DNA from: Edaphobacter aggregans
GTDB lineage: Bacteria; Acidobacteriota; Terriglobia; Terriglobales; Acidobacteriaceae
Assembly (NCBI RefSeq): GCF_003945235.1
Contig: NZ_RSDW01000001.1
Location: 5,220,001-5,252,000 of the forward strand
DNA: 32,000 nt
Reading direction: 5' to 3'
Below, in pieces: positions 24,334-32,000 of this stretch; positions within the stretch are counted from its first letter, which is position 1, and each line of letters starts with the position of its first letter. The translations under genes and the position numbers were made by a program. The notes under the pieces are model-generated. The model was not told where the DNA came from, did no database searches, and saw only the letters and a list, made by a program, of their open reading frames with translations.

Positions 24334-24408
24334 TCCTGAGTAGCTCAATGGCAGAGCATTCGGCTGTTAACCGAAGGGTTGTAGGTTCGAGTCCTACCTC
24401 AGGAGCCA
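24334..24408 (+). tRNA. tRNA-Asn (anticodon GTT)
   Basis: Hand-folded cloverleaf. Acceptor TCCTGAG/CTCAGGA, D-arm GCTC-AATGGCA-GAGC, anticodon arm TTCGG-CTGTTAA-CCGAA. Variable loop GGGTT, T-arm GTAGG-TTCGAGT-CCTAC, discriminator G, encoded CCA. Confidence 0.9.
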
Positions 24409-24459
24409 TATTTATCAATCACTTACAGCACCCCCTTCCAAAAACTTCGTCAAACTTCG

Positions 24460-25725
24460 TCAAATTGCGATAGAAGACCGCGCGGTTTTCGTTGTCGCCG
24501 GCACGGTTCTGACGTTGCGTCCCTTCAGTCCGAGACCCTCCACCGCTGGCGTCCATCCATCCAGTACAGCCGTGGCATGGGAGTTGACCGCCCGCATCAC
24601 GCTATCCTCGACCACCTGCACATACACGTTGCCCGTCGTCGTAATGCTGGCATGGCGTAGCGCGCCCTGGGTGTCCTTCAAGGTTCCGTGTTCCTGAAGG
24701 TGTGTTCCCAGGGACCGCCGCATCACCTGGAAGGTCACCAGGCGGTCCGGAATGCCGAGCTTGCGAGCGATCGGGCGGATCCGCCACTTCAGGAAGTTCT
24801 TCGCCTGCCGCGGCACGGCCTCGCCTTTGCGTTCGCCGCGTCCGAAGGTGGGAAACATCAGCGCCTCTGGAGAGGGATCCCGGGAGAGCCTACGCCAGGC
24901 CTCGATCACCGGACGAACCGGCTCCGGAACTGGGATGGGTGCTCTGCTTGCCTTCGACTTGAGCCGTCCCTTGTAGAACTGCCCCTCGTAGGCAGTGCCA
25001 TGCGGCATCAGGGAGACTCCGGTCCACGACTTCCACTGGAACCCCATCACCTCGCTCGCGCGAGGCCCGCTAAAGATGCCGACATGCATCAGGCAGAGAT
25101 CGTGCAGGTCCGTAATCGCTCCGAGCAGAGATAGGGTCTGCTCCAGGCTCATGACGGGCTTCTCGACCGGTTTGGTCAACGGCATGGTCACATCTTCTCC
25201 CGGATCATCGACCAGAAACTTCTGCTTCCTGGCCAGATGGGTGATGGCACGGATGTTGGAAAAGCAACTGCGAACCACTGATTCGGAGTAGTCCTTTTCT
25301 TCCACCAGAGTGTTCAGCCAGACCTGGATTGCGAAGGTGCTGAGGTTCCGTAACGGCAGGTCCCCGAAATACTCGATCAGGTAGTGCTCCAGGTTGTAAG
25401 TGTTCGTCTTTTTATAGGCTGGGCTCCATGAGCCTCGCCGCATGGGAATATACCGCTCCTTCACAAACCAACGGAATGTTACGGAATCATCAGGCGGAAG
25501 CGTTGGGGTAGGTCCTGCACCCTCAGTCTCCTTCAGGATGATCTCCTTGAGCATCTTTTCGGCCTTCCACTTGGGCGTGTTGGCCTTGGGACAGAGCGCA
25601 ACATTGCGCTGTCTGCGCACCTCCTTTCCTTGGCGGTCCTTCCTGTAGACCAGGTATTGCCCGTACCACATCTTCACCCGCTTCCCGCTAAGGTAGACGG
25701 TGCCCTTCTGATATTTCATAGCCAC
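24460..25725 (-). CDS. tyrosine-type site-specific integrase
   Basis: 421 aa with an N-terminal arm-binding-like region (MAMKYQKGTVYLSGKRVKMWYGQY). The C-terminal catalytic region has GPRASEV, FQVMRRSLGTHL and LRHASITTTGNVYVQ (R..H-x-x-R..H..Y pattern). Confidence 0.9.
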   Translation of the reverse strand: MAMKYQKGTVYLSGKRVKMWYGQYLVYRKDRQGKEVRRQRNVALCPKANTPKWKAEKMLKEIILKETEGAGPTPTLPPDDSVTFRWFVKERYIPMRRGSWSPAYKKTNTYNLEHYLIEYFGDLPLRNLSTFAIQVWLNTLVEEKDYSESVVRSCFSNIRAITHLARKQKFLVDDPGEDVTMPLTKPVEKPVMSLEQTLSLLGAITDLHDLCLMHVGIFSGPRASEVMGFQWKSWTGVSLMPHGTAYEGQFYKGRLKSKASRAPIPVPEPVRPVIEAWRRLSRDPSPEALMFPTFGRGERKGEAVPRQAKNFLKWRIRPIARKLGIPDRLVTFQVMRRSLGTHLQEHGTLKDTQGALRHASITTTGNVYVQVVEDSVMRAVNSHATAVLDGWTPAVEGLGLKGRNVRTVPATTKTARSSIAI

Positions 25726-25782
25726 TAGAGTTCTCCGTTTCCAGTGCTGTTGGTCGATCCATGGCCGTGGAGAACAGTTCGT

Positions 25783-26250
25783 TCATACACCAAAACGCCG
25801 CCTGCGGGAAGTCCGAGCAGTGTCGAGTGCAGCCAGAAATGTCTCCACATCACTCCAGCGAAAGCGAAGGAGTGAACCGAGTTTTACGGCTCGGATCATG
25901 GGGGAGCGACGGCTGGTATGGTCGCGCACAAAGCGTTCTGAAACGCCCAATCGGCGGGCGACCTCGATGGCGGTCAAGAGGCATTCTCCCTCTTCCATGA
26001 GCTGTCGAGAGCTGTACGTGTTTGGTATTGGCTTACGGGGATTCTCAACTTCAGAAGTTGGTAGTTCGACCGATGAACCATATGGATGATTCGAAAAGCT
26101 GGCCGTTTGCTGCAGGCCGCTTCGCTCCAGATGCAACGCCATGTATGGAACGACTCCCCCCGATCTCTCGGGCTCCTGTTTAGCCGTCTGTTGATGCGAG
26201 ACCTGTTCTTCACCAAGCAGATCTTTGTTTCCGATTGCGCTTCCAGACAT
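25783..26250 (-). CDS. helix-turn-helix (excisionase/AlpA-type, HTH_17-like) DNA-binding protein
   Basis: C-terminal LLTAIEVARRLGVSERFVRDHTSRRSPMIRAVKLGSLLRFRWSDVETFL is Xis/MerR-superfamily-like. The track ORF extends to 26403 (TTG). Start placed at ATG 26250 because of GAGGTG 6 nt upstream; the start is unresolved (ATG 25998 would give a 71-aa Xis-sized protein). Confidence 0.6.
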   Translation of the reverse strand: MSGSAIGNKDLLGEEQVSHQQTAKQEPERSGGVVPYMALHLERSGLQQTASFSNHPYGSSVELPTSEVENPRKPIPNTYSSRQLMEEGECLLTAIEVARRLGVSERFVRDHTSRRSPMIRAVKLGSLLRFRWSDVETFLAALDTARTSRRRRFGV

Positions 26251-26563
26251 ATCGCACCTCGAGTTTTGAGTGAACGCTTGTTCTTCAAGAGCCGTATTCC
26301 GGGAACCGGCAGAACCAGCTCCGAGATTGGCTCTTCCTTGCATGCGCTGGAAAACGCGCACCTTGTGTGTAAAACAGGTTCGAAACTCGGTCAAATGACA
26401 CAAGGCTCTGGACGCGAAAGACGCTTAGTGCTCAAACAAGGCTAGTGTTATCAGCGGGTAACAGTGAAGATGATGCTATTGAGGCAACCTCGGTTTTTGG
26501 AATGGGAAAGGTTGGTGGTACAACAATCGCGAGATATTTCGATTGGCAGGTCGGAAAAACGTG

Positions 26564-26863
26564 ATGAATGACAACCTAAGCAAAGAGCTTGATCGAATCA
26601 CTGATCTCGGCAAAGGCCGCTGTGATGAATACACAGAAAAACTGTTGGCGTTCGTCCAGGACATGGAGGCTTCAAGCCCGGAGCCGTTCATACCTTTGCT
26701 GGCCGACATCGCACTGGTGCGTACGCTCATCGTGCATCTCGTTATTCGATATGGCCCGGAAAGAGGGCTTGTCGAGGCTCGGGATGCGTTCAATACGACG
26801 TTTGACCAAATGAAGCCGATTCTCGAAAATATGGAGAACTTGAAAGGACACCCTCCCCAATGA
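26564..26863 (+). CDS. hypothetical small helical protein, first gene of the T4SS-side operon
   Basis: ORF track 26543..26863 (TTG); ATG at 26564 preferred. The stop overlaps the next start (ATGA). No family recognised. Confidence 0.5.
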   Translation: MNDNLSKELDRITDLGKGRCDEYTEKLLAFVQDMEASSPEPFIPLLADIALVRTLIVHLVIRYGPERGLVEARDAFNTTFDQMKPILENMENLKGHPPQ

Positions 26864-31079: not shown

Positions 31080-31106
31080 AAAGATACGCCAGTACGTATC
31101 CATAGG

Positions 31107-31139
31107 TGCGGCCTGATCACTGGGCCGCATTGCTTTGTG
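31107..31139 (+). terminator. candidate Rho-independent terminator after the VirB10-like gene
   Basis: TGCGGCC (31107-31113) / GGCCGCA (31123-31129) with a 9-nt loop, followed by TTGCTTTGTG. Confidence 0.5.
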
Positions 31140-31210
31140 CCCCCGACTGCATTGATCCGCCCGAGCCAAGTCATAGTAAAAGCGAGCAGCACGCGCCAAA
31201 CGGTGAATGG

Positions 31211-31402
31211 AGAAAAAACGCGTACTTCACTTTTGTGACGGAAGTGAGACGACGGCTAAGGACCGGCTGCCGACCGGCCAAAGTCATAAGAGAAAAAGTG
31301 TGTACTTTACTTTTGTAATCGAGCGTGCTCCGCGAGCAGCCAATGAGCCCTGGTTCCGATAGTGCAAAAAGAGAAAAAACGTGTACTTCACTTTTATAAC
31401 GG
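31211..31402 (+). repeat. three 31-nt direct repeats spaced 80 and 81 nt (iteron/operator-like)
   Basis: R1 31211-31241 AGAAAAAACGCGTACTTCACTTTTGTGACGG. R2 31291-31321 AGAAAAAGTGTGTACTTTACTTTTGTAATCG. R3 31372-31402 AGAAAAAACGTGTACTTCACTTTTATAACGG. Confidence 0.85.
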
Positions 31403-31664
31403 CGCGCCGAAGATCTGAAGCGACAAAACAGAGGTAAGAGGGCGCGGGACGAGAGGAGGTACAGGCCAGGTAGGGATTGTGAACGGTTGGGTCGAATCCC
31501 ACGAGAGCCCCCGTCGGATTTGATCGGTTCACGCGGGGCCCAGTTGTCGTTGCATCATCCATCCATGTCTAAATTCTAGCGAAACAGAGCTTCCATTCGA
31601 TTGAGCAAAAAGTAAAGTCATGCGACTTTCCTGTTCGACGGCACCCCGTCAAGGAGGCAAGTCC

Positions 31665-32000
31665 ATGATCAAGTCGTTTATGCGAGCCGTGCGTGCCGCG
31701 CAGAAAGATCTGCAGGCGCTCATCCTCATCACCTTCATCGGAGCCGCTCTGTTAGCCCCCGCTGCCACCGTTGCTCAAAACCTCGGCACCACACCCGCCA
31801 CCGGCCAGGCAGTCCAGGGTCAGACCGCCTCACAGCCTGAAGGCGCATTTCTTAATCTCGTGAATTGGGTGTGCAACGTGATCTGCCCGGTGGGCGCTGG
31901 CGTCGCTGTTGTCGCCACTGTTTTGCAGTGGCGGAGCGGCCGCAGCTGGCTGCCATCGGCAATGACTGCAGGAGGTCTGATCTGCGTATCAGGCATCCTG
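31665..32000 (+). CDS. VirB2/TrbC-like T4SS pilin precursor (3' end beyond the window)
   Basis: Own translation from ATG 31665, with AAGGAGG 7 nt upstream: MIKSFMRAVRAAQKDLQALILITFIGAALLAPAATVAQNLGTT...FLNLVNWVCNVICPVGAGVAVVATVLQWRSGRSWLPSAMTAGGLICVSGIL. It has a long leader with an A-x-A-like site and two hydrophobic segments separated by a short basic loop, as in TrbC/VirB2. Confidence 0.65.
   Translation, partial: MIKSFMRAVRAAQKDLQALILITFIGAALLAPAATVAQNLGTTPATGQAVQGQTASQPEGAFLNLVNWVCNVICPVGAGVAVVATVLQWRSGRSWLPSAMTAGGLICVSGIL

Follow-up and report, generated by a model that had tools for sequence, protein, structure and literature searches.

What kind of DNA begins at the tRNA-Asn(GTT) gene in a 32,000-nt stretch of the Edaphobacter aggregans genome (contig NZ_RSDW01000001.1, positions 5,220,001 to 5,252,000; hereafter the window), and is it still able to move? 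A preliminary description of the window had proposed an integrative element at this tRNA gene, carrying genes of a type IV secretion system (T4SS). Our analysis agrees with that proposal: with a probability of about 0.8, positions 24364–32000 belong to an integrative and conjugative element (ICE) that occupies the tRNA-Asn(GTT) gene, and form its integrase-proximal end. Two kinds of evidence bear the proposal out, namely the recurrence of the same block of integrase, excisionase and T4SS genes at different tRNA genes in relatives of the element, and junctions in which the tRNA gene is present only in part. The relatives are loci from metagenome-assembled genomes (MAGs) and metagenomes of Acidobacteriaceae, numbered here with the prefix L; features of the window are listed in Table 1.

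The open reading frame (ORF) next to the tRNA gene encodes a tyrosine integrase, i.e. a site-specific recombinase at the element end, with a PF00589 match above the cut-off and a match to PHROG_1. Its stop codon (TCA on the + strand, 24460–24462) lies exactly 51 nt from the end of tRNA-Asn. Directly upstream of int we found a gene for a helix-turn-helix (HTH) protein with matches to the excisionase families TIGR01764 and phrog_66; its ORF spans 25783–26403, with homologues aligning only over 25786–26250. Both the distance from the tRNA to the integrase stop and the Xis-like gene had been pointed out in the preliminary description, and they are confirmed by the ARAGORN and Rfam tRNA predictions, the ORF coordinates and the excisionase matches. 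The window integrase is 97% identical to its counterpart in L042 and 95% identical to that in L004. The series of int, xis, two small ORFs, an AAA+ ATPase gene, a lytic transglycosylase (SLT) gene and genes for VirB9-, VirB10- and VirB2-like proteins recurs in L001, L002, L004/L005, L042 and L043, and the same block is found in at least 25 Acidobacteriaceae MAG or metagenome loci. In this family the integrase always adjoins the 3' end of a tRNA gene, and the flanking DNA is unrelated between relatives. The insertion sites are tRNA-Asn (window, L004, L042), tRNA-Ala (L002), tRNA-Pro (L001) and tRNA-Thr (L008), i.e. the element is variably present and occupies four different tRNA genes.

The junctions of relatives locate the point of recombination. 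A metagenome scan whose query joined the 3' end of tRNA-Asn to the 19 nt of spacer that follow it returned eight loci: one with a complete tRNA, one in a contig that starts inside the tRNA, and six with the 3' part of the tRNA only. The partial tRNA-Asn genes known from seven loci correspond to six distinct junctions (L032, L033/L034, L035, L036, L038 and L042; L033 equals L034), every one of which begins at (C)TGTTAACC in the anticodon loop, and their 5' sequences are mutually unrelated. Because these junctions hold just the 3' 45 nt of the tRNA, always from CTGTTAACC, the crossover would lie in the anticodon loop, with the element as the carrier of the tRNA 3' half, the spacer and the tandem 10-mers discussed below. 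We therefore place the probable start of the window element at about 24364, inside the tRNA gene. We also considered a position of the crossover beyond the 3' end of the tRNA, at a short core sequence (AACTTC or TCGTC); it is ruled out by the partial tRNAs that start in the anticodon loop, in L042 and the five other junctions. In four junctions (L032, L035, L038, L042) the same spacer, the repeats and an integrase of the family (76–97% identical) come after the partial tRNA, and these junctions are most simply read as attP-like or tandem junctions; the remaining ones (L033/L034, L036), with other DNA downstream, appear to be attR-like. The segment from the anticodon loop to the tRNA 3' end was seen as an attachment site (att) in junctions of relatives, not in the E. 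aggregans genome. The earlier idea that a repeat of the tRNA 3' end should mark attR is right in principle, but the recombining block is 45 nt, longer than the 25-mer that had been proposed; for the window copy, attR would be a second CTGTTAACCGAAGGGTTGTAGGTTCGAGTCCTACCTCAGGAGCCA downstream, repeating the 3' part of the tRNA over as much as 45 nt or more.

In the attR-like junctions L033/L034 (partial tRNA at about 2900–2976 of L034) and L036, the element-side arms are unrelated to this ICE family, hence other elements use the tRNA-Asn anticodon-loop site as well. Decayed copies of the 10-mer repeat are present in L033/L034, without an integrase. L037 was dropped as a candidate empty site; since its contig begins inside the tRNA, it may itself be an attR.

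The perfect tandem of AAACTTCGTC between the tRNA and int, noted earlier at 24442–24461, is indeed there, and by chance ~0.007 such repeats would be expected in 7.8 kb (7.8e3 x 4^-10). It is identical in L004 and L042. Among integrase variants (~76–83% identity) both copies change jointly: L032/L035 have AACTTCACC twice and L038 has ACTTGGTCC/ACTTGGCCC, the co-varying positions being GTC/GTC, ACC/ACC and GGTCC/GGCCC. The distance of the repeats from the inferred crossover is 75–95 nt, and apart from 2 nt of the stop codon they do not overlap the int coding sequence. This position in the P' arm and the joint change with the integrase support the suggestion, made when the repeats were first noticed, that they are arm-type integrase sites; the data fit such a role, in which the integrase would presumably bind them.

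The nucleotide composition changes at the same place. In the core genes on the + strand left of the tRNA, C exceeds G at third codon positions, with a GC skew at these positions (GC3 skew) of -0.39 to -0.77 in eight of nine genes; the outlier, at 10372–11109, has -0.11. The nine element ORFs to the right, all intact within the window, range from -0.20 to +0.11, and the switch falls exactly at tRNA-Asn. The core gene OppC of a relative, which is on the opposite strand, has a GC3 skew of +0.56 in its coding sense, and because of this opposite sign the core bias is tied to the strand rather than to codons. A switch from a strand-locked core to a balanced codon usage at the tRNA, as had been described, is thus substantiated, and the composition of the element differs from that of the core in relatives too.

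The strand-locked GC skew of window positions 1–24300 is unusually strong; it amounts to -0.2 to -0.4 overall and reaches -0.77 at third positions of codons. The stretches at 4–6 kb and 9–11 kb lack it and have a lower G+C content; they might be other acquired segments.

The genes on the + strand, divergent from int and xis, encode T4SS components. The preliminary description had recognized this divergent operon, which is corroborated by relatives, where it continues into genes for VirB3-like, VirB4, VirB6-like, VirB8 and VirD4/TraD proteins, and had correctly stated that VirB4, VirB11, VirD4 and a relaxase are missing from the visible 7.6 kb. Its list of the operon named the VirB genes and omitted the AAA+ ATPase (27303–28259) and the two small ORFs that precede it. 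Of the VirB names, VirB1 for the lytic transglycosylase is solid (SLT 8e-25), the VirB10-like protein scores just under the cut-off, and VirB9 is weak as long as a single sequence is used. An exhaustive HMMER search placed the VirB9-like protein in a family with 507 cluster representatives at 50% clustering, and 17 of 40 diverse members matched the Pfam CagX/VirB9 family PF03524 (best 1.7e-7), while one of the 40 matched DotH/IcmK; on this sequence evidence we accept that the N-terminal domain is probably homologous to VirB9. The VirB10-like protein is matched by the NCBIfam models of VirB10 and ComB10 and is 100% identical to an E. aggregans protein that is named VirB10-like at NCBI; soil metagenomes and Acidobacteriaceae MAGs are rich in homologues with 60–97% identity. 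Its AlphaFold model (predicted local distance difference test, pLDDT, 48) was not used for fold searches; with low confidence it suggests a transmembrane helix, a disordered region, a beta-barrel and a helix. The family profiles of the VirB9-like and VirB10-like proteins found no match among PDB sequences. The VirB2-like ORF, whose ATG is at 31665 and not at 31666, is 92% identical to the L004 copy and precedes the VirB3-like and VirB4 genes in relatives. That it encodes a pilin, as had been suggested, is consistent with its position after B1-B9-B10, its leader and two hydrophobic helices, but the profile searches did not recognize it, and the resemblance to VirB2 is one of architecture and position only.

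The AAA+ ATPase occupies the same position in L001, L002, L004, L039/L040, L042 and L043, and the stop of its gene overlaps the start of the SLT gene (28256). Its best NCBIfam match is the MadB family AAA-type ATPase (3.4e-61, 207 bits versus a cut-off of 475), which suggests a related AAA_5 ATPase only rather than MadB itself; the PDB matches are midasin and NorQ. We found no usable literature on 'MadB'.

The possibility that the island is a prophage or otherwise phage-like draws on the tRNA-adjacent integrase and excisionase, both of which match PHROG families. However, no capsid, terminase, portal or tail family was detected among the window ORFs or the scanned element proteins of relatives, the window DNA has no match in IMG/VR, and the T4SS content speaks otherwise; we consider this origin very improbable indeed.

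The remainder of the element can be described in relatives. There the VirB2-like gene is followed by genes for a 228-aa membrane protein, a 152-aa VirB2-like protein composed of two halves (L004 13399–13857), a VirB3-like protein and a 917-aa VirB4, then by genes for two paralogous coiled-coil secreted proteins, a VirB6-like polytopic protein, VirB8 and an 809-aa protein, and finally by genes for a second VirB9 paralogue (L005 14072–15022; N-terminal domain 32% identical to the window VirB9-like protein), a VirD4/TraD coupling protein and three further proteins, the last of which is MobC-like (286 aa; p286). VirB4, encoded 3 kb past virB10, matches TIGR02746 (1.5e-51), TIGR00929 (2.8e-42) and PF19044/PF12846; its identity to any plasmid VirB4 in PLSDB is at most 25%, with Thermus and Myxococcus plasmids as the closest. 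VirB8 was identified by PF04335 (1e-4) and by precomputed matches in homologues, and the coupling protein by PF02534 (3e-9) and PF12696, both above cut-off, as well as TIGR03743 (6e-36). The relaxase candidate p286 matches NF041423 (MobC replication-relaxation; 2e-9, 37 bits, cut-off 200) and, at 1e-3, PF13814. A GTDB scan with the coupling protein revealed the distal block from VirB4 to p286, in the same order, in 24 Acidobacteriaceae/Terriglobales MAG loci. The order AAA+-B1-B9-B10, then B2...B4...B6-B8, is constant in all relatives and departs from the canonical virB order; the unusual placement of B1-B9-B10 ahead of B2, already remarked on in the window, is therefore a conserved property of the family.

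At 1.3–8 kb to the right of the MobC-like gene, L007–L029 have a variable cargo slot, with a GH95 glycosidase, an alpha/beta hydrolase, a PAPS reductase-like gene or an ABC permease. Beyond it, 21 loci encode a protein with an AEP primase domain (9e-26), an SSB (6e-33) and a Rad52-like protein (2e-11). Because this conserved block continues past the cargo slot, the element backbone must exceed 33 kb. A 24.9-kb element that ends after p286 (L005 19516) is ruled out by the same block in the 21 loci; the GH95 gene of L005, which lacks the GC3 skew of the core, also argues against that end.

Could the T4SS-like genes belong to a chromosomal apparatus for secretion, killing or DNA uptake, with the integrase beside them by coincidence? 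Such an explanation could draw on the lack of VirB11, since no VirB11-type protein was found in the window or among the scanned backbone proteins of relatives and no leftover ORF fits one, as well as on the lack of a canonical relaxase family at threshold and on a MoxR-type AAA+ ATPase and a two-barrel RNA polymerase (the 809-aa protein, see below) that are unusual in conjugation systems. However, the T4SS block is always accompanied by int/xis, the coupling protein and the MobC-like, SSB, primase and Rad52 genes, it resides at different tRNA genes in different genomes, and no effector- or immunity-like genes were recognized in it. We regard a chromosomal apparatus as very improbable.

The identification as an ICE is not free of difficulties, and the following observations weigh against it. 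VirB9, VirB10, VirB8, VirB4 and the relaxase candidate all score under the curated cut-offs, the VirB3-like protein has no significant profile support, and neither the VirB2-like protein nor its alignment has a match in Pfam, NCBIfam or PDB. No second copy of the tRNA 3' part, i.e. no attR, exists within the window, and searches with k-mers, local alignment and a T-arm pattern found none in relatives, where they covered as much as 8 kb beyond p286 in 20 loci and 33 kb in L002+L023; no single relative locus spans both element ends. E. aggregans is absent from the 24 MAG loci of the GTDB scan with the VirD4-type protein, from the best 120 homologues of VirB8 and from the best 120 homologues of the 809-aa protein and 20 of their clusters (15 of up to 151 members per cluster). 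L039/L040 (10001–11655), 93% identical in DNA to window 27232–30874, has no int, and its virB10 is fused to the 3' part of the MobC-like gene; in L008 (5425–6136), beside tRNA-Thr, a C-terminal integrase fragment is fused to a 5'-truncated gene of the 809-aa protein. Finally, the L004 element occupies the same tRNA-Asn site with a DNA identity of 84%, versus 73–82% for the flanks.

Several of these points concern the E. aggregans copy rather than the family, and could mean that the copy is a decayed, immobile remnant, vertically inherited in Edaphobacter after loss of its distal half or attR and neither self-transmissible nor excisable. Since L004 shares the site at a divergence like that of the flanks, long residence is possible, as is vertical descent; the missing E. 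aggregans matches for VirD4, VirB8 and the 809-aa protein are as expected of a remnant, and the closest relative on a long contig, L039/L040, is an internal-deletion derivative, with L008 and L038 (an inverted T4SS fragment adjoining int) rearranged as well. On the other hand, all window ORFs are full length and int is 95–97% conserved, the GC3 skew of the element has not ameliorated to resemble the very strong bias of the core, and negative searches can miss a gene: for the peptide-pattern scan the estimated miss rate is ~15–30% at 80–85% identity, and the clusters were covered in part, as stated. We give the remnant about even odds. The window copy may be defective because its VirB8, polymerase and VirD4 were not found and deletion derivatives are common, and we lean somewhat towards the view that it is a deletion derivative, hence not self-transmissible.

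For the integrative and conjugative element that we favour, the following mode of action can be envisaged. The integrase would recombine the chromosomal tRNA gene with an attP that contains the 3' 45 nt of tRNA-Asn, by strand exchange in the anticodon loop, so that the element supplies the 3' half of a hybrid tRNA-Asn; the two AAACTTCGTC repeats, 75–95 nt downstream, would serve as P' arm-type integrase sites, and the HTH_17 protein encoded upstream of int would be the recombination directionality factor (excisionase). Once the element has been excised, the divergent operons on the + strand would build a highly diverged T4SS, to which the window contributes the AAA+ ATPase, the VirB1-like lysin, the VirB9-/VirB10-like outer-membrane core proteins and the VirB2-like pilin, and which in complete relatives would be extended by VirB3-like, VirB4, VirB6-like and VirB8 proteins. 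The MobC-type relaxase candidate and the VirD4/TraD coupling protein could deliver DNA to this apparatus, with the two-barrel RNA polymerase, the AEP primase, SSB and Rad52 serving DNA processing and establishment.

Integrases of the lambda/P4 type use tRNA anticodon-loop sites and arm-type binding sites. The family resembles them in its att segment, which extends from the anticodon loop to the tRNA 3' end, and in the direct repeats in the P' arm near the int end; the tRNA sublocations that integrases use were reportedly treated by Williams in 2002. ICEMlSym R7A of Mesorhizobium is an example of an ICE with a VirB/VirD4-type conjugation system that is integrated at tRNA-Phe. With tRNA-integrating ICEs of the mating-pair-formation class T (MPF_T) the family shares the tyrosine integrase at the tRNA 3' end with an adjoining excisionase-type HTH gene, a set of VirB1, B2, B3, B4, B6, B8, B9 and B10 with a VirD4-type coupling protein, distributed over its members, and a composition foreign to the host. 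In contrast to these ICEs, its genes are in another order and include one for a MoxR-type AAA+ ATPase but none recognized as virB11; it also has two paralogous VirB9 proteins, a VirB2-like protein duplicated in tandem, a relaxase candidate of the MobC/Replic_Relax type and a two-barrel RNA polymerase; its T4SS proteins are mostly under curated cut-offs, and its VirB4 is remote from plasmid VirB4 proteins, as given above. One acidobacterial MPF_T system has been placed basally in the VirB4 tree (Guglielmini et al. 2013, PMC3548315). The window AAA+ ATPase is like MoxR, NorQ and midasin ATPases in having an AAA_5 domain above threshold. It scores far below the MadB equivalog cut-off and is translationally coupled to the VirB1-VirB9-VirB10 genes, which it precedes. 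We know of no other MoxR ATPase in such a gene context.

The 809-aa protein (L005 11301–13730) is encoded outside the window and is conserved in all 24 distal loci. At the sequence level it has no match in Pfam, NCBIfam, PHROG or PDB. Its AlphaFold model (pLDDT 83; predicted template modelling score, pTM, 0.80), submitted to Foldseek, gave 7rqs (8e-11) and 8f72 (2.5e-6) with probability 1.0, the matching proteins being Arabidopsis RDR2 (8e-11) and the RNA polymerases of phages P32 (gp64) and P74 (gp62) (2.5e-6 to 3e-5). An NGGDxDFD motif that resembles the catalytic aspartate loop is invariant in 39 sequences. According to this model, the protein is predicted to have a two-barrel RNA polymerase fold, and it may act as a conjugative primase or transcriptase. 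The fold is that of the single-subunit two-barrel RNA polymerases (plant RDR2, phages P32/P74), but the protein belongs to a conjugative element rather than to a phage or a eukaryote. YonO of the Bacillus subtilis phage SPbeta is a further two-barrel RNA polymerase; a literature search for YonO on conjugative elements yielded nothing usable.

The family is probably a known kind of element, i.e. an ICE at tRNA genes, with a strongly divergent T4SS, widespread in Acidobacteriaceae and apparently undescribed; we found no paper that describes it. A bolder proposal, for now doubtful, is that it represents a separate, Acidobacteriota-specific class of conjugative T4SS outside the eight MPF classes, in which the MoxR-type AAA+ ATPase would replace VirB11, the two-barrel RNA polymerase together with the AEP primase, SSB and Rad52 would prime or transcribe the transferred strand, and the 38-nt motif described below would be a control region or promoter. 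Acidobacteria are among the most abundant soil bacteria; to our knowledge, almost nothing is known of their DNA exchange, and genetic tools are lacking. Since hundreds of contigs from soil metagenomes and dozens of MAG species contain it, the family, with its cargo slot, is probably a major vehicle of gene flow in Acidobacteria. Automated surveys of ICEs and T4SSs are likely to undercount it, because its diverged components are mostly missed at standard profile thresholds. A complete member could become a native conjugative vector, and the AAA+ ATPase and the two-barrel RNA polymerase, as unexpected parts, could shed light on how T4SS and the processing of DNA in conjugation evolved.

Table 1. 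Features of the element end in the window (positions of the 32,000-nt stretch).
Feature	Position	Strand	Evidence or remark
tRNA-Asn(GTT); putative attL hybrid tRNA	24334..24408	+	ARAGORN; Rfam RF00005 71.9 bits
tRNA 3' 45 nt (CTGTTAACC...GGAGCCA); identity block common with attP, probably element-borne	24364..24408	+	partial-tRNA junctions
51-nt spacer, tRNA to int stop (P' arm)	24409..24459	.	accompanies int in partial-tRNA junctions L032, L035, L038, L042
perfect tandem AAACTTCGTC x2; candidate P' arm-type integrase sites	24442..24461	+	2-nt overlap with int stop codon
tyrosine integrase, 421 aa (probably 419 aa, ATG at 25719)	24460..25725	-	PF00589 31.7 bits (cut-off 27.1); PHROG_1 8e-36
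excisionase/HTH_17 protein, ~155 aa	25783..26250	-	TIGR01764 'excise' 1e-6, 29.0 bits (cut-off 28.8); phrog_66 4e-9
conserved small ORF, 106 aa, first gene of + operon	26543..26863	+	87% identical to L004 copy; present in all relatives
conserved 117-aa ORF, lipoprotein-type signal (…LITAC)	26860..27213	+	sequence; conserved in relatives
MoxR/AAA_5-type AAA+ ATPase, 318 aa	27303..28259	+	PF07728 38.7 bits (cut-off 22)
lytic transglycosylase, VirB1-like	28256..28762	+	PF01464 SLT 8.4e-25, 87 bits
VirB9-like secreted protein, 322 aa	28764..29732 (start ~28764)	+	CagX 5e-4, TIGR02781 5.8e-5, both under cut-offs
VirB10/TrbI-like protein, 429 aa	29790..31079	+	PF03743 1.3e-7, 32.1 bits (cut-off 35), profile positions 3-184/188; NF038091 2.6e-5
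GC-rich terminator-like hairpin after virB10	31108..31128	+	sequence; kept in L001, L004 with loop changes
three same-sense 38-nt repeats (AARGAGAAAAANYGTGTACYTNACTTTTGTRAY; core GTGTACYTNACTTTTGT), 80/81 nt apart; candidate regulatory array	31208..31406	+	sequence
predicted hairpin pairing CATGCGACTTTCC with virB2 Shine-Dalgarno and start codon	31619..31667	+	RNAalifold, 6 sequences
VirB2-like pilin candidate, first 111 of ~126 aa	31665..32000, runs off window	+	long leader, two hydrophobic helices, position

Of the remaining features, the two small ORFs at the start of the + operon had no family match in profile scans; it is possible that the 117-aa product, with its lipoprotein-type signal, has a VirB7-like role. 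PADLOC assigned no defence system, and the Rfam scan found no RNA family other than the tRNA.

The intergenic region between virB10 and virB2 is 585 nt long. A simple terminator scan made no call for the hairpin at 31108–31128, and a combined promoter and terminator scan did no better than on shuffled sequences. The 38-nt repeats recur, two or three to a locus, in the corresponding region of L001, L002, L004 and L038, and the elements have no copies outside it; possibly they make up an array of operators or promoters ahead of the virB2 operon. Their interpretation as small ORFs (MYFTFV...) was rejected because the GTG start codon is GCG in 2 of 14 copies. In the hairpin at the virB2 start all pairs are invariant in the six sequences, so that it lacks covariation support; its pairing with the Shine-Dalgarno sequence and the start codon suggests a possible translational control.

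Two further observations concern L002. Upstream of its tRNA-Ala there are TIR, CHAT and TPR genes (334–1939), and an inserted IS1595 transposase (6593–7570) separates the small ORFs from the AAA+ ATPase gene.

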